Positions 1,770-20,416 of a DNA stretch of 20,416 nt are shown here, one piece after another (the stretch's first letter is position 1; the number at the start of each line of letters is the position of its first letter). A program made the position numbers and the translations under genes. Source of the DNA: a virus; the IMG/VR virus record IMGVR_UViG_3300026250_000243. The stretch is one strand, 5' to 3'. The notes under the pieces are model-generated. The model was given only the letters and a program-made list of their open reading frames with translations. It did no database searches and was not told where the DNA came from.

Positions 1770-1842
1770 TCCAATTGCTTGGAGGTGGATGTCCGGAAGG
1801 ACAGCGTAGGGGGATCATGGGCTGACCCCCACGGGACCCCTA
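1770..1842 (+). ncRNA. Candidate structured small RNA next to the DUF3800-like gene (strand uncertain)
   Basis: Three tandem hairpins: TCCAA-ttgc-TTGGA (1770-1783), TGTCC-GGAA-GGACA with a GNRA loop (1790-1803), and a G/C-rich stem 1806-1832. DUF3800-associated RNA motifs are known from comparative RNA screens. Confidence 0.45.
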
Positions 1843-4164: not shown

Positions 4165-4297
4165 AAGCGTGGCATTGAGGCGTATAGCATCGATCGACTA
4201 CAAGGACGAGGCCCGAGCCCGAAGAAGAAGAAGAAGCATAAAGTCAAGAGGTGGCGATCGGGACGGAGAGCACGTTCATGCGGGGAGGTGTTTGGTG

Positions 4298-5221
4298 ATG
4301 ATAGGCAAATTACAGAGGGTTCCGCTTCGCGAAGTATGGAAATATGAAGCTTTAGAGTTCACGCCTTGGCTTCGAGATAATATCGATGTACTTAATGATG
4401 TGCTTGATCTCTTCTTATCTAATGCAGAAAGTGAGCAATCGGCTGGCGATTTCAATGTTGACCTAGTTGCAGAAGATGAAGCGGGAAATCCGGTCATAAT
4501 CGAGAACCAGCTTGAGAAGAGCGATCACGATCATTTGGGGAAACTCATCACCTACTTAACCGCAATAAATGCAAAACAAGCAATCTGGATAGTAGCTTAT
4601 CCTCGCCCTGAACACGTAGCTGCTATATCCTGGCTTAATGAATCTTCAGCAGCGTCTTTTTACCTGCTAAAGGTTGAAGCCGTCAAAATAGGCGAATCTC
4701 TTCCAGCGCCTCTATTGACTTTAATCGTCGGCCCAAGCAAGGTGGGTCGTGAAGTAGGCGAGATCAAAGAGAAATTGGCAGAAAGGGAAGTGCTCCGTCG
4801 TCGTTTCTGGGAAGCTTTACTCGAAAGAGCAAAGGATAGGACAAAACTTCACACAAATCTAACCCCAGGACCGTCCAATTGGATGGGAACAGGAGCAGGC
4901 AAAGCTGGCCTTACTTACCAATATAATATTCGACAGCACGATACGATGGTGTTGCTTTATATCGATCAAGGTAAGGATTCATACGACCAGAATAAAGAGG
5001 TATTCGATACATTCTATGCGTCTAAGGATGCCATAGAAGCTGATTTTGGGGGCACCCTGGAGTGGGAACGGCTTGATGACAGAAAGTCATGTCGAATTAT
5101 GAAAACGATAGATCTTGGAGGCTATCGTGATGAAGATAAGTGGCCAGAAGTGCATGATGCGATGATAGATGCAATGATACGCCTCGAAAAAGCAATTCGA
5201 CCACATATAGCGAGCTTATAG
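4298..5221 (+). CDS. NucS/EndoMS-like PD-(D/E)xK nuclease fused to a DUF4268-like domain
   Basis: DLVAEDEAGNPVIIENQLEKSDHDHLGKLITY nuclease core; C-terminal RRRFWEALL...LEWERLDDRKSCRI...MIRLEKA region; start ATG4298 after SD GGAGGTG (4284-4290). Confidence 0.8.
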   Translation: MIGKLQRVPLREVWKYEALEFTPWLRDNIDVLNDVLDLFLSNAESEQSAGDFNVDLVAEDEAGNPVIIENQLEKSDHDHLGKLITYLTAINAKQAIWIVAYPRPEHVAAISWLNESSAASFYLLKVEAVKIGESLPAPLLTLIVGPSKVGREVGEIKEKLAEREVLRRRFWEALLERAKDRTKLHTNLTPGPSNWMGTGAGKAGLTYQYNIRQHDTMVLLYIDQGKDSYDQNKEVFDTFYASKDAIEADFGGTLEWERLDDRKSCRIMKTIDLGGYRDEDKWPEVHDAMIDAMIRLEKAIRPHIASL

Positions 5222-5267
5222 GTGTAATTCATAACTTTATTCTATTTGGCCGATTGAGTCTTGAGAG

Positions 5268-5327
5268 ATCGTGGCGAGGGAAGCAGGGGTATCGCAGGGG
5301 GCGGTGGGATTCATCCTGGGAAGATAA
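5268..5327 (+). pseudogene. Remnant 3' end of a second DUF1699-like gene
   Basis: Translates as IVAREAGVSQGAVGFILGR*, against KVAEEAGVSPGLVGFILGM* at the end of 3742-4140; in-frame stop at 5262-5264 and no start codon. Confidence 0.75.
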
Positions 5328-5351
5328 CACCAAAACGTTTTTCACATAATG
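5268..5351 (+). repeat. Copy B of the 84-bp diverged direct repeat
   Basis: CACCAAAACGTTTTTCACATAATG (5328-5351) against CACCAAAACCTTTTTCGTATAATG (4141-4164), 21/24 identical. Confidence 0.8.
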
Positions 5352-5385
5352 GTACGTGCTATTCAGTCGTAGGGAGACGTTCGAG

Positions 5386-8253
5386 ATGGCACGTGCAGAA
5401 AAAGGCTCAAAAAAAACCGTTGATCAGTACGATCATAAGGACAAGACCCGGCTCAACAACCCGCCAGTCGGCCTTGTTACTCCAGAGACCGATATCCAAG
5501 AAGAGACGAAGACCTATAACTACGACCCTCATATCGATCCATCCCTCCAGTTTGATCCCCGCCGCTCCCAGATAGAGAAGATCATCGAAGATGGCCTTGG
5601 CGCCGAAAGCCTGGAGGGAGCAAAGGCCTCTCTGGCAAAGCTGGAGAAGCTCCAGACTCCCTATCTCAATTGGGCCGGAAAGGCAGAGCATACCACCTTC
5701 GAAGTCCCCACCGTCTCCCTCCACGTCCACGAAAGGATCGATCCTAAGACTATAATCCGAGCCGTCCGGAAGGGGAACGGGGAGGAGGGGCAAAAGTCCC
5801 TCTTCGACTTCTCGGGGGAGAATCCGCCCCTTCGAGAGGCGATCGAATTCTATAAGCATAAGCATAACTGGTCCAACCGCCTCATCGCTGGCGACTCCCT
5901 CTTGGTGATGAACTCCCTCATCGAGAAGGAGGGGATGGCCGGCCAGGTCCAGATGATCTACATCGATCCACCTTACGGCATCAGGTACGGTTCGAATTTT
6001 CAACCCTTCGTCAACAAGAGGGACGTGAAGGACGGCAAAGACGAGGACCTCACCCAGGAGCCCGAGATGATCAAGGCCTTCCGGGACACCTGGGAGCTGG
6101 GGATTCATTCCTATCTTACCTATCTTCGGGACCGGCTCCTTTTGGCGCGGGAGCTGTTGAGCGACAGCGGAAGCATTTTCGTGCAGATTTCGGATGAAAA
6201 CTTGCATCACGTTCGGGAGCTGATGGATGAGGTATTTGGAGTAATAAATTTTGTAAGTTTGATTGCTTACTCAACAACGAGCGGACTAACTTCGAACACA
6301 CTCAGCCGTGCAGGAGATTATTTGCTCTGGTATTGCAAGGATAAAATAAAGATTAAATACCGACAACTTTTCAATGAAAAACTTGACCCACTTGAAGACC
6401 CTAAATCAAGATACGATCAATTAGAAATGACTGACGGAAGCCGCCACGCACTAACTTTAAAGGAAAAAGCCACGCGACTTCATCTTCCTTCAGGTGCAAG
6501 AGTGTTTTCACTCAGTGGAATTGATAGTCAAGGAAGTGCTGGTATCGTCACACCTTTTGAGTACGAAGGTGTAGTCTTTGAACCCCCCACAGGCCGTCAC
6601 TGGACCGCCAATTATCCCGAAGGAATGGAACGGCTAAAAGTGGCAAAAAGGCTAGCTGTAATGGGCAAAAGATTAAGGTACGTCAGGTATTTTTCTGATT
6701 TTCCATTTCAGCCTATTCACAATATCTGGCTGGATATTGCTGGAAGCGTGCAGAGTCGGTCTGATCCTAAAGTATATGCTGTTCAAACCGGCACACCTAT
6801 AGTAGCCCGTTGCCTCCTCATGACCACCGATCCTGGTGATATAGTCCTAGATCCCACTTGTGGCTCAGGGACAATAGCCTATGTGGGGGAAGAATGGGGT
6901 CGTCGTTGGATTACATGTGACACCTCTCGCGTGGCTATAGCCCTGGCTAAGCAACGTCTAATGACTGCACTCTTCGATTATTACGAGCTGGCTTACCCCG
7001 ATCAGGGCGTAAGCTCTGGCTTCAATTACAAGACCGTCCCCCACATCACCCTAAAGTCGATCGCCCATAACCAGGAGATCGACGCCATCTACGAAAGGGT
7101 CCACCCCAAGATCGAGGAGTCTCTCGCAGAATTGAACCGAATCACAGGCTTGTCGATGGAGGAGTGGGAGGTCCCGAGAGACTGGGATAAGTCCTGGTTG
7201 CAAGATGCCAAATATCATTTCGACCAGTTCTGGCGGCTGAAGAGAGAGATGCAGGAGGCGATGGACGCATCGATCCAGAAGAACGCCCCCCAGGAGACCC
7301 TCTACGACCAGCCCTTTGTGGACTCATCAAAGGTTCGGGTCACTGGTCCCTTCACAGTTGAGGCCGTCCCCGCCCCGGTGGTCAAGCCCCTCGCCGAGAT
7401 CGAGGCCCCGAAAGGAGAGGCAGACGAGTCGATAGCCCGCTCTGGCGAGACCCTCCGCCAGTCAGAATGGAGGGAAGAGCTTCTCAAGACCGGCATAAGG
7501 GGCAAAGGAGGCCAGAAGTTCCAGTTCTCCAGGGTGGAGCCTCTCCTGGGGGCTCGCTGGCTCCATGCGGATGCCGAGACGAAGAACGGCGACGGTCCCC
7601 AGAGGGCGGTCATATCCTTCGGGCCGGAGCACGCCCCCTTGGACCAGACTCAGGTGGCCCGAGCCGTAGAGGATGCTCAGAAGCTCGTCCCTAAACCCAA
7701 GATCGTCGTCTTTGCCGCCTTCCAGTTCGATCCCGAGGCCTCCAAGGATATCGACGAGATGAACTGGCCGGGGGTGACTCTCCTCAAAGCCCAGATGAAC
7801 GGCGACCTTCTCACCGAGGACCTGAAGAAGAAACGGGCCAGCAACGAGAGCTTCTGGCTCATCGGCCAGCCCGACGTCAAGCTGGAGAGGATCGAGGAAG
7901 GCGACGACCTCGGCAAGTACTACGTCGAGGTTCTGGGGTTCGACTACTACAACACCAGGACCGGAAACGTGGAGTCGGGGGGCGTCGGAAACATCGCCCT
8001 CTGGATGCTGGACCCGGACTATGATGGGAGGAGCCTCTATCCCAGGCAGGTATTCTTCCCCATGGCCGGCTCCAAGGACGGATGGGCAAAGCTCGCCAGG
8101 AACCTCAAAGCCGAGATCGACGAAGAAAAGATCGAAGCTTATCGAGGGACCCGTTCTCTCCCCTTCAAACTTGGCGATAACAAGAGGGCAGCCGTTAAGA
8201 TCGTGGACGACCGGGGGATAGAGAGCCTGAAGATCCTGGAGGCAGATCAGTGA
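5386..8253 (+). CDS. mod: Type III R-M modification subunit (beta-class amino-methyltransferase)
   Basis: Motif IV IYIDPPYG precedes the TRD, which precedes motif I DPTCGSGT; stop overlaps the res start (GTGA); ATG5386 preferred. Confidence 0.93.
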   Translation: MARAEKGSKKTVDQYDHKDKTRLNNPPVGLVTPETDIQEETKTYNYDPHIDPSLQFDPRRSQIEKIIEDGLGAESLEGAKASLAKLEKLQTPYLNWAGKAEHTTFEVPTVSLHVHERIDPKTIIRAVRKGNGEEGQKSLFDFSGENPPLREAIEFYKHKHNWSNRLIAGDSLLVMNSLIEKEGMAGQVQMIYIDPPYGIRYGSNFQPFVNKRDVKDGKDEDLTQEPEMIKAFRDTWELGIHSYLTYLRDRLLLARELLSDSGSIFVQISDENLHHVRELMDEVFGVINFVSLIAYSTTSGLTSNTLSRAGDYLLWYCKDKIKIKYRQLFNEKLDPLEDPKSRYDQLEMTDGSRHALTLKEKATRLHLPSGARVFSLSGIDSQGSAGIVTPFEYEGVVFEPPTGRHWTANYPEGMERLKVAKRLAVMGKRLRYVRYFSDFPFQPIHNIWLDIAGSVQSRSDPKVYAVQTGTPIVARCLLMTTDPGDIVLDPTCGSGTIAYVGEEWGRRWITCDTSRVAIALAKQRLMTALFDYYELAYPDQGVSSGFNYKTVPHITLKSIAHNQEIDAIYERVHPKIEESLAELNRITGLSMEEWEVPRDWDKSWLQDAKYHFDQFWRLKREMQEAMDASIQKNAPQETLYDQPFVDSSKVRVTGPFTVEAVPAPVVKPLAEIEAPKGEADESIARSGETLRQSEWREELLKTGIRGKGGQKFQFSRVEPLLGARWLHADAETKNGDGPQRAVISFGPEHAPLDQTQVARAVEDAQKLVPKPKIVVFAAFQFDPEASKDIDEMNWPGVTLLKAQMNGDLLTEDLKKKRASNESFWLIGQPDVKLERIEEGDDLGKYYVEVLGFDYYNTRTGNVESGGVGNIALWMLDPDYDGRSLYPRQVFFPMAGSKDGWAKLARNLKAEIDEEKIEAYRGTRSLPFKLGDNKRAAVKIVDDRGIESLKILEADQ

Positions 8254-11093
8254 AACGAACCCAAATAGACACCCTGATAATCAACTCTCCCTACGAAAAG
8301 CCTTCAGAGTTTTGGAAGTACGACCCCAAGACCAGGCTCTTCGAGAGAGTGGCTGGGAGAAGGCCCGCGGGTTACGTCATCGCCTCCGGCCGGTCCGGAT
8401 CTTATGACGACTCGGGCTTGATCGTAGAGATCCCCCTCGTCAACAAGATCAGGGAGCGGGTGGACTCCTGGAGGGAGAAAGGCTATCCGGGCGTTACGGG
8501 GATCACTCGGCGCCTCCTGGAGCACTGGAACGACCCTCAGCAGAGAAACCTTCGATTCTTCTTCTGTCAACTGGAGGCGATCGAGACCCTGATATGGCTC
8601 ACCGAGGCCCCTGATGCCGAGAAGGTCGGTATCGAGATCCCCTCAGATGGCGGCTCTTGGAGGCGGCTATGCTCCAAGATGGCGACGGGATCGGGAAAGA
8701 CCATCGTTATGGCGATGCTCATAGCCTGGCAAGCTTTAAACAAGACCGCCTACCCCCAGGATGCCCGTTTCTCTAAATACTTCCTGGTGGTGGCGCCTGG
8801 CTTGACCGTAAGGAGCAGGCTCCAAGTCCTGATCCCATCAGCACCAGGCAATTACTACGACGTCTTCGGAGTGGTTCCCACAGGCTTGCGAGAGAAGCTC
8901 AATCAGGGCAAAGTCAAAGTTGTCAACTGGCACGCCCTCAACTGGGAGACCCCTGAGCAGATCGCCAAGAAGAAGGGCGTAGATAAGCGGGGGGCCAAAA
9001 GCGATGAGGCCTATGTCCGGGAGGTTCTGGGCGATATGGCTCAAATCAGGAACCTGGTGGTGATAAACGATGAGGCTCATCACGCCTGGAGAGTTCCCGC
9101 CGAGTCCAAAATAAAGGGGTTCACGAAGGAGGAGATCGAGGAGGCGACCAAGTGGGTGGGGGGACTGGACAGAATTCACCGAACCCGAAACATCCAGGCA
9201 TGTTACGACTTTTCGGCTACACCTTTCGCCCCCACGGGAAAGACCAGCTCCGAGGCAGCTCTATTCCCCTGGATAATCAGCGACTTCGGGCTCAACGACG
9301 CCATCGAATCGGGTCTCGTCAAGACCCCCAGGATGGTGATAAGGGATGATGCCCTACCAGACTCCAAGACGTACAAATCTAAGCTCTATCATATCTACAA
9401 CGATCCCGACGTTAGAGAGGACCTCAGCAGGAGGGCAGAGGAGCACGACCCCCTCCCAAAGCTGGTGACGAACGCTTACTATCTGCTGGGCACCGACTGG
9501 CTCGCCTGGGCAAAAAGGTGGGAAGAGGAGGGCTCGGACGTTCCGCCGGTGATGATAACCGTCACCAATAAGACTGAGACCGCGGCACGCATCAAATACG
9601 CCTTCGACCATAACAAGTTCCTGATCGAAGAGCTATGTGATCCGGCCAAAACCCTTCACATCGATTCCAAGGTTATGAAGGAGGCCGAGTCTCAGGAAGA
9701 TCTTTCGGGAAATGTCCTCGACCTCTTCGACGACGAAGACACCGACCGGAACCTCTCCAAGAAGGATCAAGCTCAACTGCTCCGCATCCTGGTAGATACC
9801 GTTGGTAAAAAGGGAAAACCAGGCGAGAAGATTCAAAACGTCATCTCGGTGGGGATGCTCTCGGAAGGTTGGGATACCAAGACGGTAACTCATATTATGG
9901 GACTTAGAGCCTTCTCCAGCCAGCTCCTTTGTGAGCAGGTGGTAGGTCGAGGCCTGAGACGAATCTCCTATGAGATAAACGAGGATGGGAAGTTCGATCC
10001 TGAGTACGTCAACATATTCGGAGTTCCCTTTGCTTTCCTGCCTCATGAGTCGAAGGAAGGTATCCCTGGTCCCCAGCCGAAGCCCAAGACCCAAATTGAG
10101 CCAGATCCGGAGAAGGTGGAATTTGAGATCAAGTGGCCTAACTTGATAAGGATCGAGCACCAATACAAACCGCATCTCACGCTGAAATGGGACGAGATTT
10201 CTCCTCTCACCTTGGACATTAGCGACACCATCACCAAAGCCGAGCTGGCGAGAATCATCGGGGGCAATGCAGACCTCACCAACATCTCTGAGATCGATTT
10301 GAGGGCTTTAGCTGAGAAGTTCAGGATGCAGAGGATCGTATTCGAGACCGCAAGAGACGTTTACGACCAGATGAAGCCCGACGACTGGAAAGGAGACAAG
10401 TTCGAGCTTCTGGCTCAGGTGGTCCACCTAGTAGAGGAATTTTTGGCTTCGGACAAGATCAGGATAAACCCGCCAAACTGGTGCGATGATCTTCAACGGC
10501 GCATCCTATTAACCTCCAACATGGGGAGGGTGGTCCAGCACATCTGGCAATCCATCTATTTTCAGAATACCGAATCTATGGCGCTAGTCACTGATAAAGA
10601 GAAACCCATCAGATCGACTGGGGATATGGGGACCTGGTATACCGGCAAACCTTGTGAACGGGCCGCAAAATCGCATATTAACTTCTGCGTCCTGGACAGC
10701 ACTTGGGAGGCGTGCGAAGCCTTCGAGCTTGACCACAACCCCCACGTGAAAGCCTGGGCAAAAAACGACCATTTGGGGTTCGACATCTACTACATCTTCG
10801 AGGGTAAGACCCATCGGTATTTGCCTGATTTCATCATAAAGCTCGACGCAGATCCGGAGGGCCAGAACGAGGATCAGGAGTCGGCCCCTTCAGGGTATTA
10901 TCTTGTCCTTGAAACGAAGGGACGAGACACCCAAAAGGACAAGATCAAGCGGGACTTCTTGGACGAGTGGGTGAGGGCGGTCAATGAAGATGGTGGGTTT
11001 GGCTATTGGCAATGGGCCGTTTCCCGAGATCCGGCTGATGTTCGAGGAATCATCGGGGACGCGGTATCAAAAGTGGAAAGTAAAAGGTCATGA
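8250..11093 (+). CDS. res: Type III R-M restriction subunit (SF2 helicase-like ATPase plus PD-(D/E)xK nuclease)
   Basis: KMATGSGKT (Walker A), INDEAHH (DEAH), SATP, LSEGWD, QVVGRGLRR; C-terminal YLPDFII...VLETKG. Confidence 0.93.
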   Translation: MKRTQIDTLIINSPYEKPSEFWKYDPKTRLFERVAGRRPAGYVIASGRSGSYDDSGLIVEIPLVNKIRERVDSWREKGYPGVTGITRRLLEHWNDPQQRNLRFFFCQLEAIETLIWLTEAPDAEKVGIEIPSDGGSWRRLCSKMATGSGKTIVMAMLIAWQALNKTAYPQDARFSKYFLVVAPGLTVRSRLQVLIPSAPGNYYDVFGVVPTGLREKLNQGKVKVVNWHALNWETPEQIAKKKGVDKRGAKSDEAYVREVLGDMAQIRNLVVINDEAHHAWRVPAESKIKGFTKEEIEEATKWVGGLDRIHRTRNIQACYDFSATPFAPTGKTSSEAALFPWIISDFGLNDAIESGLVKTPRMVIRDDALPDSKTYKSKLYHIYNDPDVREDLSRRAEEHDPLPKLVTNAYYLLGTDWLAWAKRWEEEGSDVPPVMITVTNKTETAARIKYAFDHNKFLIEELCDPAKTLHIDSKVMKEAESQEDLSGNVLDLFDDEDTDRNLSKKDQAQLLRILVDTVGKKGKPGEKIQNVISVGMLSEGWDTKTVTHIMGLRAFSSQLLCEQVVGRGLRRISYEINEDGKFDPEYVNIFGVPFAFLPHESKEGIPGPQPKPKTQIEPDPEKVEFEIKWPNLIRIEHQYKPHLTLKWDEISPLTLDISDTITKAELARIIGGNADLTNISEIDLRALAEKFRMQRIVFETARDVYDQMKPDDWKGDKFELLAQVVHLVEEFLASDKIRINPPNWCDDLQRRILLTSNMGRVVQHIWQSIYFQNTESMALVTDKEKPIRSTGDMGTWYTGKPCERAAKSHINFCVLDSTWEACEAFELDHNPHVKAWAKNDHLGFDIYYIFEGKTHRYLPDFIIKLDADPEGQNEDQESAPSGYYLVLETKGRDTQKDKIKRDFLDEWVRAVNEDGGFGYWQWAVSRDPADVRGIIGDAVSKVESKRS

Positions 11094-11150
11094 AATAAGA
11101 GACGGCGGCGACGGAAGCGTTGGAGAAGATCCGGGCGGGGCGGTGATGAT

Positions 11151-11663
11151 ATGACGGATGTCTCATTAAAAGCGACTGCCTACCATGAGGCGGGCCATGC
11201 TGTCGTATCTTTCGTTTTAGGGCGGAGGTTCAAGCGGGTTAGCATCGAGCCGATGGACGACGCGGCCGGGTATGTCGAATACTACGATGACCGGATCATC
11301 AGGAAGATCTTGGCGGGTGCGTGTGTGGTTCCCTGGTTGATAGAGCATCCAGACGAGGAGACCAGGATCGTAAATCGTTCCATCAGTTCCGCAATGGCTG
11401 GCTACATGGCTCAAGAGATAGGGGTCCCTGGGAGCGTCACATCTGAGCAATGGGATAGTGATCGAGAACTCATTATAGACATTCTTGTTAGTTGGGACCC
11501 TGATAATGGATGGGATGAAGCTAGACGAGAGGTTGGGACTTTATTATCGAGTAATTGGCATCTAGTGGCGCTTCTGGCGGAGGCCTTGTTATCGAGGAGA
11601 ACGTTGACCGGGAAAGAGGCGAGGGCGATCCTGGTGGGCGAGCCGAGGGCGGGGCGGTTATGA
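11151..11663 (+). CDS. Stand-alone HEXXH zinc-metallopeptidase-like protein (peptidase M41-like domain)
   Basis: TAYHEAGHAVV, ISSAMAGYMAQE and LAEALLSRRTLTGKE resemble the FtsH protease domain; no AAA or transmembrane part. Confidence 0.75.
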   Translation: MTDVSLKATAYHEAGHAVVSFVLGRRFKRVSIEPMDDAAGYVEYYDDRIIRKILAGACVVPWLIEHPDEETRIVNRSISSAMAGYMAQEIGVPGSVTSEQWDSDRELIIDILVSWDPDNGWDEARREVGTLLSSNWHLVALLAEALLSRRTLTGKEARAILVGEPRAGRL

Positions 11664-11664
11664 A

Positions 11665-12135
11665 ATGAAGGCGATTCATAGGCCTTTCGTGTATCTGGAT
11701 TGCCCCTTTACGGGTGATAAAGTCGGGGTTGATAAGTCGATTGCCCCTTTGATCGATCTGATATGGAAGGCGGGAATTGAGACGACGGATAGCTGTATTC
11801 GTCACAGTCATTTCAGGAAGCGTCCGGGGTTCCGATTTGAATGTATTCCCCGAACTTGGATAGCATTTCGAAGTAGTGAGGATGCAGAGCGGTTTATGAA
11901 AATCGTTATGTCCCGACTTGATCCCGACGACGAGATGTATAAGAGGATCAACGGCGATCTAGGGCTTGATTTTGAGCCTGAATACCCTTACCACCAGGGG
12001 CGACACTGGATATATGACGTGTCCCATACTGGGATTTATCAGGGCGACGTTCCAAGGTTCGGGGTATCGGTGTGGTTCCCTCTGGCTGACTTCCCGCGGG
12101 TCCTGGAGCTATTCAAGGCGGGGGTGGTGGGGTAG
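11665..12135 (+). CDS. Hypothetical protein with a TYW3-like N-terminal motif
   Basis: ATG 1 nt after the peptidase stop; VDKSIAPLIDLIWKAGIETTDSC resembles the D-x-x-I-x-x-L...T-T-x-S-C motif. The ORF is likely real; the function is speculative. Confidence 0.65.
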   Translation: MKAIHRPFVYLDCPFTGDKVGVDKSIAPLIDLIWKAGIETTDSCIRHSHFRKRPGFRFECIPRTWIAFRSSEDAERFMKIVMSRLDPDDEMYKRINGDLGLDFEPEYPYHQGRHWIYDVSHTGIYQGDVPRFGVSVWFPLADFPRVLELFKAGVVG

Positions 12136-13726: not shown

Positions 13727-16700
13727 ATGACCTCCTCCTCCGACCTCACTGCAGAGCACTACAAACGGCCCGAAGTAGAGGAGACTATCCTCCGGTGCAG
13801 TCAGGACGGCGAGGCCTGGAGGTGCTTGAACGGCGATCAAGGCTGGTACATCACCGCGGAGAACGGCGGCGTAAGGCTGAGGGGGCCGGAAGACTACGAT
13901 AGGACGACGGAGGAATTTAGGACCCTTTATTGGTCCCTGGATCTTTTCGAGCCCGAAGTCAAAAGCATCACCGAGAAATGGGACGAGGCCCGGAAGAGGC
14001 CGGTCCACCCCATCGGAACCCTTCGAGAATGTAGAGCGTATTCTCTCGGCGTTGATATCGATGCAGTAGGCCACAATGCTTTCGATGATCTCGACACCAC
14101 GAAGGCGCTGGAGGAGGCAGCGACATTCCTGATTGATCGCCTCAGAGCGGCGGGGATCGAGAAGAGCGTATATGCGCTATGTTCTGGCGGCGGCGTGTAT
14201 GTCTTAATTCATCATGCCCTATTCACGGCTCCTTCTGAATGGGACGGCGAGGCGAGGGAGTCCAGGTTCCGCCACCTCCTCGAAATGTATAACGCTTTCA
14301 TCCGAGACACGGCGGAGGCGTTCTTTGAGGCTCACCCTGAGCATGTCGGGCGCGTGGTCTTTGATGCGTTGAACGGTCAGAAGCGGAAGTTTAAGACTAT
14401 CTTCTCGATTCACAAGACCGTCCCCGCGGCGGTTGTTCCTCTCGATCCTCAGTGCATCAAGATATCAAAAGAAGATGCAACTATCCCCCTCTCCTCCGAG
14501 GTCCTGGAGCGGGGCGCGGCGTGGTATCGAGACTTCGACCCCTCAGATAAGGACCGCCTCCAAGAACTTCTGAGGCCCTACGCTAAGGCAGCGGAAGAGA
14601 AGCTGGAGAGACGGAAGACGGAGACCGGATCTTATGACCTCTTCCGGCGGGATGCCCCCACTCTACCAGATGAATGGTGCCCTCTCATACAGAGGATCGC
14701 CGGAGGGGTGAAGGCGGGGGAGATCGGGCGACACGCAGCTCTGGGGAACCTGGCGCGGCACCTCTATGCCGACGGGTGGAGCATGGAGGCGGCGTTCCGG
14801 CTTTGGTCTCCTCTCGCCGATCAGGCGGGCGTCGAATACCGAATATTCGATACCTCTTTCGGCGAGATCTCCGAGGCGAGATGTGAGGCGATAAACGAGC
14901 CACGGGCCGGATATCCCGCCTCCTCTCTCGGAGGGACCCGGTTTGCTGAGGCGTGCGCAACGTGTCCGAGGCGAAAGGCCGGGCGGTTCCCCTCTGACTA
15001 TGCTCACCTGAAGGCAGAGGAGGCGACGACCTCCACCGAAAAGGACGACGGGATAAAGAGCATCACCGAAGAGGAGCTTATCGGGCTACCTGTAGCGGAA
15101 AACCCGCGGCTATCTATCAACTTGGAGCCGGATAATTTCATTTCGGAGTATGTGGACTACGCTTCCAGCCTCTCGGATGCCTACGTAGAATATCATTATG
15201 CCGGGGGCCTCTTCATGGCTTCGACGGCTATAGATCGAAGGGTGGTCTTGAAGCTAAAGCAGGGGACCGTTCACTCTAACCTGTGGCTCTTCTGTCTCGG
15301 GAACTCCACCACGAGCCGAAAGACAACGGCGATGAATGGACCGGGGGCGATCCTCGATACCTACGAAGTAGGGCGACGACTTCCAAGTTCGTTTAGCCCT
15401 GAGGCGTTGATTGAAGCGTTGGCCGATTGCCCGCGGTCGTTCTTCATGAAGGATGAAGCGGGGTCCCTGCTGGCGGCGATGGGTAAGAAGTACATGGACG
15501 AGGCGAGGGACTTCTTCTCCGAGCTTTACGAGGGGAAAGACTACCATCGAAAGCTGAGGACGGGGCAAAGAAAAGAGAAGCGAGAGTTTCAGATCCTTAG
15601 CCCTTACGTTACTCAGTGGCTCGCCACCACCCCCGATAATTTCAGGGCTTATACGTCGGAGTTAGACGTTACTTCGGGGTGGCTTCTGAGGTACGGGTTC
15701 TTTTGGCCGGATCACGTCAAGCCCTGGAAAGCTTTCGAAGAGGCGACGGAGGAGGACTTTTCCCGGTACACTACGATATCCATAAAGTACCGGGACCTAA
15801 AAGAGAAGTTGGCCGGTCTGGATATCGAAGGTTTGAAATTGAGTCTTACGGCGGAGGGTTGGGAGCATTTCTCCGGCTGGCAACGGGCGATAGAAGAGCG
15901 GGCGATGAGGGAGGAGGATCGGATACTTCAAGCCGTGGCGGGCCGGTTGATGACCTTCGCCCTCAAGCTGGCTATGGTCTTTACCGTCGGGCGGCCAGAC
16001 TTCGACCCCTCCACCACCAGGGCGGTTAGCCTTGAACATGTCCAAGAGGCTACAAGGCAGGTGGAGACCTACTTTTTGCCTACGGCGCGGGTAGTTATCG
16101 AGGAGGTGGCCCGGTCCGAGAGGGAGAACTTACAGAACCAGATAATAGGGACCATCCGAAGGGCTGGCGGGAAAATCGCAAGGCGCGACCTCCTCCGAAA
16201 GCTTCACGTCAAGCTTGAGGACGTTGATAAGGCTATCTGCGCCCTGGAAGCGTCCGAAGAGATAGAGACTCTGCAGGTTGAAGGAAAGGGTCCAATAAAG
16301 TACGTTTACAGGTTAACCGTCTCTAATGTCCCTTCTGTCTCTAATGTCCCTTCTGTCTCTTCTGTCACACAAATACAGGGTAATTCTACACGGTCGGTTA
16401 AATCGGATCGTGATAAATCTAGTGCTTTTGGAGAGACGGTTGTGACAGTAGGGACTGTAGAGACCGTAGAGACAGAGAAGACAGTTACCACCGGGGGGGA
16501 TGGAGGTGCTGAGAGGACGGCGACTCCGTCACCAAAGCCGAAGGGAGAGGGCGACGAGGGCCAGGACCCCACCGCCGAGGAGGCCGAAGCGTTGGAGATG
16601 GCGAGGGCTATCATAGCCGCTGGAAAGCGTGTTACCTTCGGGAACGTCGAGGCCTACCTGGAGAAGCGGGCCGGTGGATACGTCGAGCCGAAGATGATTA

Positions 16701-16780
16701 AGCGGTTCTTGAACGCTCTGACGTCTCAGGGGTGGACGACGGATAAAGAGGGGGCTCTCTCCGAGGGGGTGGTGGGGTGA
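13727..16780 (+). CDS. Replication protein: AEP primase-polymerase, 4-Cys PriL-like domain, DUF3987/YfjI-like P-loop helicase and two winged-helix-like domains
   Basis: GVDID (D110/D112) and SGGGVY...H AEP-like motifs; C318, C386, C410, C413; GNSTTSRKT Walker A (G525-T533), FMKDE Walker B (D576/E577), SGWLLRY arginine-finger-like motif; wHTH-like IARRDLLRKL...DKAICALEASEEI. Confidence 0.85.
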   Translation: MTSSSDLTAEHYKRPEVEETILRCSQDGEAWRCLNGDQGWYITAENGGVRLRGPEDYDRTTEEFRTLYWSLDLFEPEVKSITEKWDEARKRPVHPIGTLRECRAYSLGVDIDAVGHNAFDDLDTTKALEEAATFLIDRLRAAGIEKSVYALCSGGGVYVLIHHALFTAPSEWDGEARESRFRHLLEMYNAFIRDTAEAFFEAHPEHVGRVVFDALNGQKRKFKTIFSIHKTVPAAVVPLDPQCIKISKEDATIPLSSEVLERGAAWYRDFDPSDKDRLQELLRPYAKAAEEKLERRKTETGSYDLFRRDAPTLPDEWCPLIQRIAGGVKAGEIGRHAALGNLARHLYADGWSMEAAFRLWSPLADQAGVEYRIFDTSFGEISEARCEAINEPRAGYPASSLGGTRFAEACATCPRRKAGRFPSDYAHLKAEEATTSTEKDDGIKSITEEELIGLPVAENPRLSINLEPDNFISEYVDYASSLSDAYVEYHYAGGLFMASTAIDRRVVLKLKQGTVHSNLWLFCLGNSTTSRKTTAMNGPGAILDTYEVGRRLPSSFSPEALIEALADCPRSFFMKDEAGSLLAAMGKKYMDEARDFFSELYEGKDYHRKLRTGQRKEKREFQILSPYVTQWLATTPDNFRAYTSELDVTSGWLLRYGFFWPDHVKPWKAFEEATEEDFSRYTTISIKYRDLKEKLAGLDIEGLKLSLTAEGWEHFSGWQRAIEERAMREEDRILQAVAGRLMTFALKLAMVFTVGRPDFDPSTTRAVSLEHVQEATRQVETYFLPTARVVIEEVARSERENLQNQIIGTIRRAGGKIARRDLLRKLHVKLEDVDKAICALEASEEIETLQVEGKGPIKYVYRLTVSNVPSVSNVPSVSSVTQIQGNSTRSVKSDRDKSSAFGETVVTVGTVETVETEKTVTTGGDGGAERTATPSPKPKGEGDEGQDPTAEEAEALEMARAIIAAGKRVTFGNVEAYLEKRAGGYVEPKMIKRFLNALTSQGWTTDKEGALSEGVVG
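16319..16482. repeat. Inverted arrays of 9-bp iteron-like units flanking an AT-richer spacer (candidate replication origin)
   Basis: Six GTC(T/C/A)C-type 9-mers on + (16319-16372) and six on - (16429-16482; five GTC(T/C/A)C, one GTCTT), all at exact 9-nt spacing; spacer ~39% GC. Confidence 0.75.
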
Positions 16781-17052
16781 GACAGATCGATCTCTCCTCT
16801 TTTGCTGAGGGGCCAAATCCTCGACCTCTCGCCGCCGACGACGACGAGGGCGAGGACCTGGGAGGCGTCGTCCCTGGGGGCCGGTGTAGCAGGTGCGGAA
16901 AGCCTCTCCGGGGCGGGGGGCTGAAGGCCTTGGGCTGGCCGGGCCGTGTCTGCTGGAATTGCTTTCACAAGCCGGGACGTCGGGACGGGCGGGCGGATGC
17001 GAGCCGGGACGCGGCGGCGGAAAGAAACTGTGGATATGGGGCGAGGCGGTGA
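16777..17052 (+). CDS. Small CxxC...CxxC zinc-finger protein
   Basis: RCSRCG...VCWNCF; GTGA overlap with the primase-helicase stop. Confidence 0.55.
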   Translation: MRQIDLSSFAEGPNPRPLAADDDEGEDLGGVVPGGRCSRCGKPLRGGGLKALGWPGRVCWNCFHKPGRRDGRADASRDAAAERNCGYGARR

Positions 17053-17054
17053 GC

Positions 17055-17255
17055 ATGTCGAAGGCGGATTTAGAACGGCTTTGGGAGTGGTCCGAGAATA
17101 TCAGGGAGGAGGTGGGGGCCCTCTCGGATGCGATCGCCAAATTGGCGGCTAAGGATCTCCCCGACGAGGGCGACGACAAAGAGACGATCCCAGCGAGCCC
17201 CCCTGGGGTTCGGTGCAAAAACGATATCGGGGGCTATATAAGTGACAGAGAATAA
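17055..17255 (+). CDS. Small coiled-coil hypothetical protein
   Basis: MSKADLERLWEWSENIREEVGALSDAIAKL heptads; starts right after the previous stop (GTG17049 is an alternative). Confidence 0.6.
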   Translation: MSKADLERLWEWSENIREEVGALSDAIAKLAAKDLPDEGDDKETIPASPPGVRCKNDIGGYISDRE

Positions 17256-17472
17256 AAAGAAAAAGACCAGGGGCGTGAGCATCAATAAGCCCTCGGATGT
17301 GAGACGGATAGCCCGAAGGGTGATCTCCGACATCTTCGTCGAAGGGTCACAGATCACCAACGCTGGGAAGGTGAATCAACTTCTTATAACGTGGCTCAAG
17401 GGCTGGGAGTTGGAGAAACTCGAAGACATCGAGCGGCGGCTCTCGGCTCTGGAAGAGGAGCGGCGGGGATGA
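17242..17472 (+). CDS. 76-aa helical protein with basic N-terminus and C-terminal RLSALE coil
   Basis: KKKKTRG N-terminus, two predicted helices, ends LEDIERRLSALEEERRG; overlaps both neighbours. Confidence 0.75.
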   Translation: MTENKKKKTRGVSINKPSDVRRIARRVISDIFVEGSQITNAGKVNQLLITWLKGWELEKLEDIERRLSALEEERRG

Positions 17473-17648
17473 GGTACGGCGATCTGGAGCGACGGCTCGC
17501 CAGGTTCCGGCCGGGGGCGCGGTATGAAGATGACGGCTTTGCCGCTGCCTGTGGTGCTCTCCCCGGCGAGACCGGGCTCGATGCCCTCCGACGGCAGGCG
17601 GCGGATGACTGGAGCGATTATCCCAGGGGATGGGCGGATGAGATTTAG
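17469..17648 (+). CDS. Small protein, N-terminal coil motif (degenerate: DLERRLARFR)
   Basis: ATGA overlap with the previous gene; paralogous to 18058-18240. Confidence 0.65.
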   Translation: MRYGDLERRLARFRPGARYEDDGFAAACGALPGETGLDALRRQAADDWSDYPRGWADEI

Positions 17649-17814
17649 GACCGAAGATAGCCGACTCCGAGCCCTGGAGCGTGGCGGCGGTGATCCCTTG
17701 AGGTATGTTCTACTTTGGGATCATGAAGTAGAGCGGACCCCCGAGGAAGAGGAGGCGTTTATCGCCGGGGGCGGCGAAATTATCCGGCTGAGGTGGCTCG
17801 ATGAGGGGGCTTGA
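17638..17814 (+). CDS. Small acidic protein, N-terminal RLRALE motif
   Basis: ATG17638 overlaps the previous gene by 11 nt; MRFRTEDSRLRALERG. Confidence 0.68.
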   Translation: MRFRTEDSRLRALERGGGDPLRYVLLWDHEVERTPEEEEAFIAGGGEIIRLRWLDEGA

Positions 17815-18061
17815 AAAGCGGCTCAGGACCCTGGAGAGAGGTCTCGCCGACGGCAAAACGCTCACCACCGACGAAGCCGGAAACCCCATCTACTTGGAAG
17901 GTGGCGGGCTCTCCCTGGCGTTCCGGTTGATGGAGATCCAAGACGAGGGGGGCGAGATCCCCGACGACCTTCGGCGAGAGGCGGTTCGCTGGAGTCGGTC
18001 GTTCCCGGAGTCGCCGGCGGAACGAGAGATAAAATCACTATGTGAGAAGGCGATCTCTTGA
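17801..18061 (+). CDS. Small protein, N-terminal RLRTLE motif
   Basis: MRGLEKRLRTLERG; 14-nt overlap with the previous gene. Confidence 0.72.
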   Translation: MRGLEKRLRTLERGLADGKTLTTDEAGNPIYLEGGGLSLAFRLMEIQDEGGEIPDDLRREAVRWSRSFPESPAEREIKSLCEKAIS

Positions 18062-18240
18062 GATATGCGAGCCTGGAGGGGCGGGTCTCAAGGCTGGAGC
18101 CTCCTCCACCCTGGATTGACCGGGACGTTGATAACTTCCTGGCGGCGACGGGCGGCCGTCCGGGTGAGAAGGTGTACGAAATTTTGGAACGAAGAGCGGC
18201 CGATATTTGGGCCGACTGGACTGAGGCCGGCGAGGGATGA
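18058..18240 (+). CDS. Small protein, N-terminal RVSRLE motif
   Basis: TTGA overlap; MRYASLEGRVSRLEP; paralogous to 17469-17648. Confidence 0.68.
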   Translation: MRYASLEGRVSRLEPPPPWIDRDVDNFLAATGGRPGEKVYEILERRAADIWADWTEAGEG

Positions 18241-18479
18241 GGGCATACAAGCTTGATTCGAGGCTGCGAAAACTGGAGGGCGAGGCGGCGGAAGTGATCG
18301 ATCCACCCCCTGGGGCCTGGATGATCCGGACCTTCGATGATCTGGTGCGCTGGAGCGAGTACGGAGGGGATTCTGAATGGGATCTATCCGAGTGTCCGGA
18401 GTGGCTTTTGCGGGATCTTCACGAGGCTCTGATGGAGCATAAGGAGGAGCTGGCGAGGGGATCATTTGAAGGGGATTGA
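18237..18479 (+). CDS. Small acidic protein, N-terminal RLRKLE motif
   Basis: ATGA overlap; MRAYKLDSRLRKLEG; paralogous to 18466-18660. Confidence 0.72.
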   Translation: MRAYKLDSRLRKLEGEAAEVIDPPPGAWMIRTFDDLVRWSEYGGDSEWDLSECPEWLLRDLHEALMEHKEELARGSFEGD

Positions 18480-18660
18480 AAAGAGGCTGGAGGCGCTGGA
18501 GGCGTCCAAGTCGGGGGGGTTCAAGATCCGTTCTCTTGTGGATTTGGTCAACTGGGCGGAACTGGGGGAAGACATACCGCCGGATCTCACCGAGTGTGAT
18601 GATGAGCTTCTGAGGCTGATCTACGAATCCACAAAGGACGACGAGGAGGGCGAGCCGTGA
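18466..18660 (+). CDS. Small acidic protein, N-terminal RLEALE motif
   Basis: 14-nt overlap; MKGIEKRLEALEA; 18 D/E against 8 K/R. Confidence 0.72.
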   Translation: MKGIEKRLEALEASKSGGFKIRSLVDLVNWAELGEDIPPDLTECDDELLRLIYESTKDDEEGEP

Positions 18661-18711
18661 AGTTGGGAGGACGAGAGGGCGAAAACATCTCTCCCCGAAG
18701 GGCTCTCCATT

Positions 18712-18760
18712 TAGTTCTATGATATTATCGAAAGCTATAAGTACTAATATCACAGAACTA
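18712..18760. promoter_or_regulatory. Inverted-repeat box 2 enclosing the BRE/TATA (AAAGCTATAAGTA, 18731-18743) of the next gene
   Basis: TAGTTCTATGATATTA (18712-18727) and TAATATCACAGAACTA (18745-18760) form a 15/16 inverted repeat; ATG18767 is at leaderless spacing. Confidence 0.75.
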
Positions 18761-18766
18761 TATACC

Positions 18767-19144
18767 ATGCACAAGACAGAGACCGGCGAGAAGATTAAGG
18801 CGATGAAGGCGGAAGCGGCGAGAGCCGAGAAGGAGGCGGCAACCCTGGCGAAGGTCCGAGGACTGGAGGAGGGGGCGATGGAGAGGGAAGAGGAAGCCCG
18901 ACGGCTTAGGGATGAGGCCGATGACCTGAAGCCCAAGGCGCGGCTTGAGGACCTGAGCGTCTACCAGGTGGAGAGGGTGAAGACCACGGCGAAGGGCGAG
19001 GCGAGAACCTATACCTACTGGCACGCTTCCTGGTGGGAGGGCGATCGAGCCCGGAACGTATACCTGGGGAGCGTCGCGAAGCTCTCGGAGGAGGCGGCCC
19101 TGGAGAGGGCTCGGAAGATGAAAGCCGACGCCTTGGGGCTTTGA
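18767..19144 (+). CDS. Coiled-coil protein with a C-terminal AP2/integrase-arm-type DNA-binding-like domain
   Basis: Long A/E/R helical N-half; C-terminal TYTYWHASWWEGDRARNVYLGSVAKLSEEAALERARKMK fits three strands plus a helix. Confidence 0.72.
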   Translation: MHKTETGEKIKAMKAEAARAEKEAATLAKVRGLEEGAMEREEEARRLRDEADDLKPKARLEDLSVYQVERVKTTAKGEARTYTYWHASWWEGDRARNVYLGSVAKLSEEAALERARKMKADALGL

Positions 19145-19221: not shown

Positions 19222-19255
19222 GGAAAAAGCGCATAGTTGAAATAGGAGGTTAAGC

Positions 19256-19390
19256 ATGGATAAGATGAGCCAGGAAAAGGTCGCGACCCCAGTTCGAGGA
19301 ATTGAAGCGTTGCCGCCAGAAATTCGCGATCGATATCATGAGGTCGTCAGCTATCACCACGGCTTATTGAAGCGGTTGGCTCAGAAATAA
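19256..19390 (+). CDS. 44-aa candidate antitoxin peptide (not in the ORF track): MDKMSQEKVATPVRGIEALPPEIRDRYHEVVSYHHGLLKRLAQK
   Basis: Own TATA box and strong SD; C-terminal Y..LLKRLA resembles the C-termini of Doc-neutralising antitoxins; stop overlaps the doc 3' end. Confidence 0.62.
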   Translation: MDKMSQEKVATPVRGIEALPPEIRDRYHEVVSYHHGLLKRLAQK

Positions 19391-19779
19391 TCGGATAGAG
19401 GACGCTGTTTCTCTGCCCACCACTTCCGACGTATCCTTTTCAACCAGAGTTCAATCTGCCGTGTATTACATTTGTATTCTGAAATTCTTATCAGCGCATC
19501 GTATATTTCCTCTTCGTCAGTGCGGCTCAAGTAATATCCATAGCTCCTTAAAATTATAGCCGCTAATGTGAATGCTGTCCGTTTTTGTCCATCATAAAAC
19601 GGATGAAATTTGGCTATACATAACGCCCAGGTGGCTTTTTCAAAAACGCCTTGAGCCCTATTTATTCGGTCCACTAGGCAATCGAGAGTTCCGCGATTAA
19701 GAATGCCCAAGGTGCCTCCTTCCATCTGGATGAGGTCATCATGAATTGAGATCACCATTTCTGGAGTCATTTCTATCAT
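19381..19779 (-). CDS. doc: Fic/Doc-family toxin (Doc-like)
   Basis: ISIHDDLI...GILNRGTLD and Fic motif HPFYDGQKRTA, where K marks the Doc subfamily. Confidence 0.88.
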   Translation of the reverse strand: MIEMTPEMVISIHDDLIQMEGGTLGILNRGTLDCLVDRINRAQGVFEKATWALCIAKFHPFYDGQKRTAFTLAAIILRSYGYYLSRTDEEEIYDALIRISEYKCNTRQIELWLKRIRRKWWAEKQRPLSDYF

Positions 19780-20065: not shown

Positions 20066-20082
20066 AATCCCGTTCCCCGCAC
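20066..20082 (+). repeat. attR core AATCCCGTTCCCCGCAC
   Basis: Identical to the tRNA 3' end at 112-128. Confidence 0.92.
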
Positions 20083-20416
20083 TATATTACGCCTTATGTT
20101 GTTGATCGTAATCGACTTTTTCCGCCGCCTTGATCTCGCCCCCCTCTCTTCTGGATCGATCTATTGGCTCGATCCTCTCCGCCGGAGACGACGGGCTCAT
20201 TATTCTCGCTGGAGAGGAATCAGGTCACCGCCGCCGGGAGAATATTTAACCTATTATTTTAAATGCCCAATGGTTCTTTGGTCCGGTGGCCTCTCCCGCC
20301 GCAATTCGACGATCCGATCGGCCCCCGCGATAAGATCCTCGCCCTTTCCAGGCGGCCTCCTCATCGAATCATCATCTTTTTTACGATATCCCGCAAGAAT
20401 ACCGTCCATGGACTAC

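Follow-up and report, generated by a model that had tools for sequence, protein, structure and literature searches.

In PKS/NRPS docking domains, a short C-terminal helix of one protein has its counterpart in a short N-terminal helix of the following gene products. In phage lambda, the C-terminus of gpNu1 binds the N-terminus of gpA, and phage satellites (PICI/SaPI TerS, PLE) redirect packaging. In digesters and wetlands, Methanothrix ranks among the main acetoclastic producers of methane; to our knowledge, hardly any studies have dealt with its mobile elements. Among coiled coils, R-hxxhE is the trimerisation motif of short parallel structures such as coronin-1, ccbeta and GCN4p-M3 (Kammerer and co-workers; PMC3653964), and in GCN4p-M3 a Glu placed two residues before the Arg takes part in a salt-bridge network (PMC3653964).

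We analyzed an array of small genes bearing this motif in a window of 20,416 nucleotides (IMG/VR record IMGVR_UViG_3300026250_000243). The layout of the array fits no described family. The explanation that we put forward, on which our judgement is evenly balanced, is that the shared motif would serve as a docking helix and that the first protein, O1, would be the hub to which the others dock.

The array and its element

The window holds an element bounded by att repeats (112-136 and 20066-20090) which carries, besides these att sites, an integrase and a primase-helicase. This 20-kb element is integrated in a Methanothrix-type methanogen. Capsid, portal, scaffold and prohead protease were without match in Pfam searches of the larger ORFs and the whole operon and in PHROGs searches of the operon genes, and TerL is absent from the element. 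The seven consecutive overlapping ORFs of the + strand listed by the first-pass annotation are all present (Table 1). From O1 to O7 the successive overlaps are 4, 11, 14, 4, 4 and 14 nt; the O1/O2 junction is an ATGA overlap, O5 starts at a TTG within a TTGA overlap, and G-rich SD-like tracts are found 5' of each array start. Upstream, U overlaps the start of O1 by 14 nt; its N-terminal part is variable, with an identity of only 51% in locus L001. We read the seven-gene stretch 17242-18660 as an operon with coupled translation, carried by an integrative element that lacks a capsid and has a Methanothrix-type archaeon as its host.

Table 1. Genes of the array and its immediate surroundings in the window
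Feature	Coordinates	Strand	Description	Terminal sequence
CxxC...CxxC protein	16777..17052	+	91 aa; 5' of U	
U	17055..17255	+	Acidic coiled-coil protein, 66 aa from ATG at 17055; ORF open from 16893	
O1	17242..17472	+	Basic, 76 aa, GTG start; proposed hub	C-terminus ...DIERRLSALEEERRG
O2	17469..17648	+	Tagged client, 59 aa, degenerate tag LERRLARFR; paralogue of O5	N-terminus MRYGDLERRLARFR
O3	17638..17814	+	Tagged client, 58 aa, EDSRLRALE	N-terminus MRFRTEDSRLRALE
O4	17801..18061	+	Tagged client, 86 aa, LEKRLRTLE	N-terminus MRGLEKRLRTLE
O5	18058..18240	+	Tagged client, 60 aa, LEGRVSRLE then PPPP; paralogue of O2	N-terminus MRYASLEGRVSRLE
O6	18237..18479	+	Tagged client, 80 aa, LDSRLRKLE; paralogue of O7	N-terminus MRAYKLDSRLRKLE
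O7	18466..18660	+	Tagged client, 64 aa, IEKRLEALE, TTG start	N-terminus MKGIEKRLEALE
D	18767..19144	+	125-aa protein; closes module in 22 loci	

O2-O7 are acidic (pI 4.2-5.0, net charge -3 to -10) and contain 1-4 Trp each. To this extent the earlier description of six different acidic, Trp-containing bodies holds; the bodies are not all different, as O2 and O5 form a paralogue pair (tblastn E 1e-8 to 1e-10), as do O6 and O7 (tblastn E about 1e-7), the latter with some likeness to O4. A G-x-x-IP-x-DL turn is common to O4 and O7. The genes differ in their fate across related elements: O3 is 100% identical across L001, L002 and L012, is missing from the L004-L009 lineage and has its ATG changed to ATA in L010, and O7 is frameshifted in L010 and L011. 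Some changes fall inside the tags, since the O7 tag is longer by ALEALE in L004, L005 and L009 and O4b, a variant found in other elements, has an O4-type body behind a tag that is O3-like. D has a long N-terminal coiled coil, which holds K-V-R-G-L-E, and a C-terminal Y-x-Y-W-H-A-S-W domain; in its L016 homologue a short tag, NIESRLKALE, replaces the long coil.

The nine operon proteins gave no significant Pfam, PHROGs or NCBIfam family, U and O1 each being without a match in Pfam, PHROG and NCBIfam, and ten further client types compared with Pfam likewise gave no significant family. A client with two CxxC motifs had a weak Rad50 zinc-hook-like match. The AF2 model of O6 (pLDDT 69.6) has an N-terminal helix (residues 3-14) that a Pro linker connects to a small beta-alpha-beta-alpha body; searched against the PDB and the ESM Atlas, it returned nothing with E <= 0.001, with TM-scores < 0.45. 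An ESM Atlas feature search returned unnamed clusters only. In this search, the neighbours of O4 are partly labelled Uroviricota (score 0.92-0.93), which we note as a lead only.

The tag and its constraint at the protein level

O2-O7 begin with h-E-x-R-h-x-x-h-E and O1 ends with IERRLSALE, as had been seen before. The unit Arg(g)-[ILVM](a)-x-x-[LIV](d)-Glu(e) is matched exactly by O1 and by five of the six clients, the tag of O2 being degenerate (RLARFR). Translating the whole window in six frames yields 11 occurrences of R[LIV]xx[LIV]E, 6 of which lie in the array, in frame and at protein ends. The tag is predicted to be helical (residues 3-14 of O6 and 41-75 of O1), and the exposed helices offer no more than 3-4 core positions, few for a coiled coil that is to be stable by itself. 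Among 125 distinct tagged proteins, L or I is found at position -3 in 83% and E at position -2 in 60%; the search pattern had left both positions free, and they are conserved nonetheless, with codons mixed synonymously. In the same set, a Pro occurs at most 12 residues past the tag in 77% of proteins, and 87% of the bodies are net acidic. A reading of the tag as a signal peptide was dropped, no hydrophobic stretch being present.

The Arg residues of the tag are encoded by CGG, AGG, CGA, CGT, AGA and CGC and the Leu residues by CTT, CTG, CTC and TTG. As these codons vary synonymously, the constraint lies on the protein, and the earlier claim to this effect is borne out by the codon spread together with dN/dS values of 0.2-0.5 for every array gene between diverged orthologues (O2: 0.19-0.47). 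A different view would be that the repeated motif reflects a nucleic-acid constraint (re-initiation, mRNA structure, a protein binding or recombination site) or that the ORFs are not genes. With the genes so tightly coupled, 5' coding sequence could matter for re-initiation, and the two residues that end the tag (Leu-Glu) are most often encoded by CTGGAG, which contains GGAG. Support from RNA consists of low-depth contigs: parts of O1-O4, O7 and D were found at 99-100% identity and depth 2-5 in metatranscriptome contigs from four studies, which are not counted as proof of expression because DNA carry-over is possible. However, conserved tag positions mix CGN with AGR for Arg and CTN with TTG for Leu, dN/dS values of 0.2-0.5 extend over whole genes, bodies that have diverged to 40-60% identity are still conserved at the protein level, and the minus strand carries tagged ORFs at background only. 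We consider a nucleic-acid origin of the motif extremely improbable. Iterons or an origin within the array were also dropped, given the spacing of 180-260 bp and the synonymous variation. Combined, the sequence comparisons indicate that the array ORFs are real genes and that the tag is constrained at the protein level.

O1 and the genes behind it

O1 is a basic protein (pI 10.0) whose AF2 model (pLDDT 88.6) is a helical hairpin (H17-34, H41-75) with a disordered, Lys/Arg-rich N-terminus; I-E-R-R-L-S-A-L-E (about 17428-17454) lies on the protruding C-terminal helix. A profile search of O1 against solved structures gave a best E of 0.58, and a fold search of its model against the PDB gave nothing with E <= 0.001. 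The O1 homologues form 433 clusters at 90% identity, every one from Methanothrix or Methanotrichaceae. Of 105 Methanotrichaceae species genomes, 30 contain O1; about 287 other genomes of the class contain none.

Tagged ORFs occur at 2.0/kb within 2.5 kb 3' of O1, against a background of 0.12/kb elsewhere on the + strand and 0.115/kb on the - strand. Of 68 distinct O1 loci, 50 have a tagged gene immediately after O1, and tagged genes also trail strongly diverged O1 homologues. Array size ranges from 0 to 7 across loci, with a 4-nt overlap at 74 of about 157 junctions and 11-17 nt at most others. Arrays are found after O1 across the Methanotrichaceae and are conserved in related elements, and the lack of conservation that the first-pass annotation had named as an objection to its own proposal was not encountered. 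The tag is carried by about 24 body clusters that are unrelated by BLAST, including a 2xCxxC protein, a 172-aa protein, a 247-aa protein, a D-type domain and a terminase large subunit. Judged from these comparisons among loci, the tag is modular and co-occurs with O1. Comparison supports two parts of the earlier proposal, the modularity of the tag and its tie to the 76-aa protein that precedes the arrays and bears the motif on its C-terminus, and co-assembly is a putative third; as to interchangeability within the window, the bodies are partly paralogues. In some loci, e.g. L105 and L106, O1 is followed directly by D with no tagged gene; O1 must therefore also do something when clients are lacking.

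Variable clients are probably linked to an O1 hub by the tag, which would act as a portable docking helix. In this scheme, the C-terminal helix of O1 would offer one complete Arg(g)-h(a)-x-x-h(d)-Glu(e) unit, and each client would carry such a unit at its N-terminus, followed by a Pro-rich linker and a variable body. Pairing of the O1 helix with the client helices in a parallel coiled coil would leave the bodies of O1 and of the clients at opposite ends, and O1 would collect any clients that the element encodes. We infer this physical pairing and its stoichiometry; a complex prediction for O1 (44-row alignment) and O7 (23-row alignment) scored 0.03 where the mark is 0.32, which is a verdict neither way. 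Because all parts are small soluble proteins, docking is directly testable.

Alternatively, each mini-protein might homo-oligomerise through its own tag, as a homotrimer or otherwise, with O1 merely sharing motif and operon; the tag would then be a convenient cassette for oligomerisation, which tandem duplication and recombination among adjacent genes would have spread. Parallel homotrimers are the best-known setting of R-hxxhE (PMC3653964), the O2/O5 and O6/O7 pairs represent duplication, the O4b chimera and the ALEALE expansion represent recombination or slippage inside tags, and the exchange of a long coil for a short tag between D and its L016 homologue is as for a generic oligomeriser. 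This leaves unexplained why tagged genes are at background rate everywhere but directly behind O1, and why the sole tagged TerL among 120 stands beside O1, or why a terminase ATPase would need to trimerise. Moreover, no client family comes near O1 in conservation and spread (for O1, 433 clusters at 90% identity, compared with about a dozen representatives at 50% for clients, in searches that differ). We hold self-assembly without a hub to be rather unlikely.

Links to DNA packaging and comparison with described systems

The positional link of the module to DNA-packaging genes is new relative to the first-pass annotation. In one lineage (L019 = L051), O1 lies 5' of TerL with one small ORF between them. 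The tagged terminase large subunit of L019 (Terminase_6N, E 2.6e-11) bears the tag on an 18-aa extension found, among about 20 TerL genes of the family, only in the copy beside O1; of the 120 nearest TerL homologues among 5.8 billion proteins, this copy alone is tagged and it alone adjoins O1. In L107, a PHROG terminase-small-subunit match (E 1.3e-10) lies directly upstream of O1; an HTH protein upstream of O1 in L094, L105 and L106 has a homologue that precedes TerL in L112. The N-terminal 27 residues of the CxxC...CxxC protein upstream of U resemble, weakly (E 2e-5, pairwise only), a protein encoded ahead of a TerS-like gene and TerL in L110. TerL is not near O1 in the other roughly 90 loci, and most O1 loci have no terminase-related neighbour. 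A hhalign comparison of O1 with two neighbouring TerS-like proteins gave a probability < 1%, and the O1 model is a two-helix hairpin without HTH; O1 as a terminase small subunit by homology was rejected, there being no TerS profile similarity and no HTH. Two side observations concern the same neighbourhoods: the gene next to TerL in L112 is portal-like by position, and tape-measure-like genes are linked to the module in some relatives.

The element carrying the O1 module is possibly satellite-like, and the module may occupy the terminase slot of this capsid-less element. More speculatively, it may belong to DNA packaging or helper-virus exploitation, O1 having a small-terminase-like recruiting role and the mini-proteins acting as adaptors, decoys or co-delivered effectors. 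The fullest version, which we regard as unlikely, is an undescribed Methanotrichaceae docking system in which O1 captures an exchangeable acidic panel in the first satellites of archaeal head-tail viruses, with DNA coupled to the helper packaging motor or counter-defence cargo co-packaged; the tag would be so positional that a TerL landing behind O1 acquired it. As for the combinatorial interference or anti-defence proposed earlier, nothing in the comparative evidence points specifically there.

The tag might also be a targeting peptide read by a third party, such as a helper-virus scaffold, portal or capsid, a chaperone or a protease, with O1 and clients sorted together, e.g. co-packaged with the DNA and delivered to the next host. 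It resembles in this the capsid targeting sequence of T4 internal proteins in a fast-turnover locus, relatives of the module are in part linked to TerS-like, TerL and tape-measure-like genes, and inside its att borders the element lacks capsid genes. Yet no cleavage site or protease goes with the array, no helper virus has been identified, and IMG/VR viral contigs scanned with O1, O4-type clients and D contained no relatives. The motif is a self-complementary coiled-coil unit, and pairing among its bearers is thus simpler than recognition by a third party, which we consider quite improbable.

If true, docking to O1 would be a natural minimal plug-in tag of about 12 residues that fixes arbitrary small domains, even an enzyme, to one hub, and could give a compact heteromeric tag for protein engineering. 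It would also bear on the organisation and exchange of accessory genes in archaeal elements and on the existence of satellites of archaeal head-tail viruses.

The C-terminus of O1 and the tag fit R-hxxhE, with L/I/V at h(a) and L at h(d), and usually have the extra Glu two residues before the Arg. They differ in holding a single motif unit with 3-4 core residues and Pro or Gly flanks, and known cases are single proteins, unlike the set encoded here by one array. The T-even internal proteins (IPI, IPII, IPIII, the polymorphic ip locus) likewise combine a short conserved N-terminal peptide with diverse, small, adjacent proteins in a fast-changing locus, and the array shows the same combination, its locus being polymorphic and its bodies diverse behind a conserved N-terminal peptide. 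In contrast to them, the tag has no sequence similarity to the capsid targeting sequence, the window element has no scaffold core, prohead protease or capsid, and the motif is a coiled-coil unit, also present on the C-terminus of the preceding protein, in an archaeal host.

As in terminase pairs, O1 of L019 lies 5' of a TerL whose N-terminal extension matches the O1 C-terminus, and TerS-like HTH proteins adjoin O1 in several loci. As in satellites (PICI/P4/PLE), the window element has an integrase and a primase-helicase and structural genes are absent, redirection genes being hypothesised only. O1 differs in lacking TerS homology and an HTH, and no helper virus, cos or pac site or particle is known to go with the element. 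Cohesin-dockerin and PKS/NRPS systems would share with the array the match between a C-terminal helix of one product and N-terminal helices of the following ones, and the principle of one hub and many interchangeable clients; there is no homology, and the array proteins are of 58-86 aa with no enzyme domains. Where PKS/NRPS docking builds a specific ordered chain, the array has a proposed O1 hub followed by many clients with the same tag.

The tagged operon and its element

An array of mini-genes sharing a coiled-coil tag had been proposed by the first-pass annotation, and its ORFs, coordinates and in-frame motifs were all confirmed. The array is part of a single tightly packed operon (17055-19144, + strand), in which U precedes O1, the proposed hub, followed by the six small clients O2-O7 and the closing gene D. 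Each junction from U to O7 is an overlap of 4, 11 or 14 nt, with a G-rich SD-like tract ahead of every start. O1 ends in D-I-E-R-R-L-S-A-L-E-E-E, and each client carries h-E/D-x-R-h-x-x-h-E 2-8 residues past Met, the O2 copy being degenerate. When the window is translated in all six frames, R[LIV]xx[LIV]E appears 11 times, and six of the copies are in the array and in frame.

The window holds an integrative element that is complete, about 20 kb long and capsid-less; the ORFs scanned between its att borders gave no match to a capsid, portal or terminase. The methyltransferase, ResIII and M41-like genes serve the element as restriction or defence cargo, and further cargo genes are present besides the methyltransferase/ResIII pair. 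Downstream of D, a 208-nt contig from the X17 metatranscriptome (word depth about 250) covers a 44-aa ORF converging on the Fic/Doc gene, at a depth far exceeding that across the remaining stretch.

Features of the window and of related loci
Sequence	Feature	Position	Strand	Remarks
Window	tRNA-Leu	45-129
Window	att direct repeat	inside 112-136 and 20066-20090		17 nt exact, AATCCCGTTCCCCGCAC; tRNA-Leu 3' end and near window end
Window	tyrosine integrase	692-1675
Window	N6_N4 methyltransferase and ResIII helicase-like protein	within 5356-11093		965 aa and 947 aa; 4-nt overlap
Window	protein with Peptidase_M41-like HEXXH segment	within 5356-11093		170 aa; after the pair
Window	DUF3987 primase-helicase	within att borders		1017 aa
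Window	tandem 18-nt repeats (9-nt sub-period)	16319-16363		GTCTCTAATGTCCCTTCT; primase-helicase gene 3' part; encode VSNVPS repeats
Window	U	from 17055	+	first operon gene; acidic coiled-coil protein
Window	O1	17242-17472	+	76 aa, pI 10.0
Window	O2-O7	between O1 and D	+	six acidic proteins, 58-86 aa, pI 4.2-5.0
Window	D	18767-19144	+	about 125 aa; 103-nt gap after O7
Window	X17 contig	19254-19461
Window	Fic/Doc gene	19381-19779		Fic E 4.3e-7
L004, L005, L009	O7 with longer tag	807-1019, 6176-6388, 4218-4430
L005, L010	O4 variant	5457-5771, 1745-2053
L010, L011	O7 frameshifted	2461-2651, 1177-1367
L016	D homologue	1687-1965
L019	O1 homologue to ParB_N-like protein	10001-11906
L092	tagged protein upstream of O1	7595-8014		139 aa, MKSGGIDRRLSRIEAK...
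L150	protein behind O1 array	1231-4032	-	933 aa; no match
L158	large protein behind O1 array	4203-6578		PHROG endolysin (E 1.7e-14) and tape-measure (E 1.7e-8) matches

O1 as the constant gene and the tag behind it

O1 homologues formed 433 clusters, and those with a named source all came from Methanothrix, Methanosaeta or Methanotrichaceae. The gene was present in 30 of the 105 species-level genomes of Methanotrichaceae, in up to six copies, and in none of about 287 other genomes of the same class; it was not found in IMG/VR. About 100 O1 loci were compared using one mechanical definition of a tagged ORF, in which [RK]hxxh[ERT] had to follow a start codon by no more than 12 codons. Over the 2.5 kb downstream of O1 the density of tagged ORFs was 2.0/kb, compared to 0.12/kb (+ strand) and 0.115/kb (- strand) elsewhere. 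The gene immediately after O1 was tagged in 50 of 68 distinct loci, tagged chains had 1-7 members, and 4-nt overlaps accounted for 74 of about 157 array junctions. The pattern was also found behind strongly diverged O1 homologues. Some elements carry D directly after O1, without an array, which is therefore optional cargo between two constant genes. One locus, the sole such case among those seen, has a tagged protein upstream of O1 and not downstream (L092). The O1-array-D module is joined to three different replication proteins: its window copy to the DUF3987 primase-helicase, its L001 copy to D5_N/DUF5906 and its L005 copy to AEP-TOTE; the replication protein of the O1 locus L019 is an MCM.

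In 125 distinct tagged proteins, positions free of the search pattern were conserved too (L/I at -3, E at -2), a Pro lay at most 12 residues after the tag in 77%, and bodies were net acidic in 87%. Their tag codons were mixed, Arg being encoded by CGG, AGG, CGA, CGT, AGA and CGC. A dozen contigs, which come from digesters and from Euryarchaeota MAGs, carry close relatives of the array. Pairwise Nei-Gojobori dN/dS was 0.2-0.5 for every gene wherever substitutions sufficed. RNA-library contigs from four studies covered the operon partly and at low depth, and were given little weight. That the motif reflects a constraint on the nucleic acid, or that the ORFs are non-genes, appears highly improbable.

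Gene turnover in the array resembles that of genuine accessory genes. O3 is absent from one lineage and has ATA in place of its start ATG in L010; in one lineage O7 has a frameshift behind residue 18, where tag and body meet. A 6-residue duplication adding ALEALE to the O7 tag (LEALEALEALE) in three loci shows that tag length is polymorphic. In two loci an O4 variant with an O4-type body starts with MRYRTEDDRLRRLE, close to the O3 tag MRFRTEDSRLRALE, which looks like recombination between the tags of neighbouring genes. Divergence differs sharply between adjacent genes (in the same locus pair, dS of 1.3 for O1 versus 0.24 for O5), and the operon is therefore a recombination mosaic.

Client bodies and packaging genes

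The first-pass annotation had also seen a different domain behind each of the six tags. The bodies are in fact partly related: O2 is clearly a paralogue of O5, and O6 of O7, and O4 can be aligned to O7 over a region centred on a helix, G-x-x-I-P-x-D-L, helix core. In an AlphaFold2 model of O6, of moderate confidence, a helix at the N-terminus (3-14) is joined by a disordered linker with Pro to a small beta-alpha-beta-alpha body; a fold search with the model gave no match. None of the bodies matched Pfam, PHROG or NCBIfam, and an exhaustive search of 1.84 billion representatives with the family profile HMM found no more than about a dozen small relatives; the client families of the window are tiny and lineage-specific. 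Across loci, tagged bodies fell into about 24 clusters unrelated by BLAST, none with a Pfam family, and included a 2xCxxC protein, 172-aa and 247-aa proteins and a D-type domain. D itself has a conserved K-V-R-G-L-E within a long N-terminal coiled coil; in its L016 homologue a short tag, NIESRLKALE, replaces the entire coil directly before a Y-x-Y-W-H-A-S-W domain.

A tag was also found on a terminase. L019 (= L051), from a Methanothrix harundinacea MAG, carries integrase, MCM, O1, a small ORF and TerL in that order, and no capsid genes were seen in the 20 kb covered. The O1 homologue is followed by a 93-aa ORF whose C-terminal piece is O4-like, a tagged ORF for the TerL ATPase domain (Terminase_6N, E 2.6e-11), the nuclease domain (Terminase_6C) in the next ORF, and a ParB_N-like protein. 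This TerL begins M-Q-T-K-G-L-E-R-R-I-A-V-L-E-S-I-V-S-P. About 20 further TerL genes from the family, none of them near O1, lack the extension. Of the 120 homologues closest to this TerL in a collection of 5.8 billion proteins, no other has it; the segment before the Walker motif has a modal length of 43 residues there versus 61 in L019. Although confined to one lineage, the tagged TerL has no easy explanation other than selection for the tag on proteins encoded behind O1. It is improbable, in our view, that a third party reads the tag as a targeting peptide, in the way of the T4 capsid targeting sequence.

Other loci also place O1 beside packaging genes. In L107, a protein matching several PHROG terminase-small-subunit families (E 1.3e-10) lies directly upstream of O1, and an HTH protein upstream of O1 in L094, L105 and L106 has a homologue in L112 that precedes TerL and a next gene, a portal-like candidate by position. 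No homology was found between O1 and its TerS-like neighbours. Behind the O1 array of L158 lies a tape-measure-like protein; the large protein in the same position in L150 has no match (see table). Gene positions hint weakly that the proposed assembly would act in DNA packaging or would let a capsid-less element exploit a helper virus; a role as counter-defence cargo would also be compatible with the acidity and fast change of the clients.

Proposed assembly through the tag, and known systems

The published trimerisation unit is Arg(g)-h(a)-x-x-h(d)-Glu(e), and in GCN4p-M3 a Glu two residues upstream extends the inter-chain salt-bridge network (PMC3653964). The tag equals this unit, upstream Glu included. 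The O1 model (pLDDT 88.6) has a disordered basic N-terminus and a helical hairpin whose second helix extends to the C-terminus; in this predicted structure the one heptad seam left free consists of L60, I63, L67 and L70, and it bears the motif. In a parallel coiled coil the basic O1 body would stand at one end and the acidic client bodies at the opposite end, without clash, because the unit is C-terminal in O1 and N-terminal in the clients. This placement, together with the identity of the motif, leads us to favour, at about even confidence, a hub-and-client assembly of O1 with the tagged proteins, the O1-client pairing being putative. The helices that would pair are short. The same unit might instead build independent homo-oligomers, which we consider possible but rather unlikely.

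In a limited search of the literature on satellites and dark-matter islands of archaea and on mobile elements of Methanothrix, this layout was not found; one archaeal 'dark matter' family is annotated just 'Methanosaeta specific', and none of the array genes could be matched to it. The tag motif itself is already known. Judged by those of their defining features that could be checked, the array is a member of none of the analogous systems, among which the closest in function are the T-even internal proteins with a capsid targeting sequence, the docking helices at the ends of PKS/NRPS subunits, cohesin-dockerin scaffolds and the lambda-type pairing of the TerS C-terminus with the TerL N-terminus.
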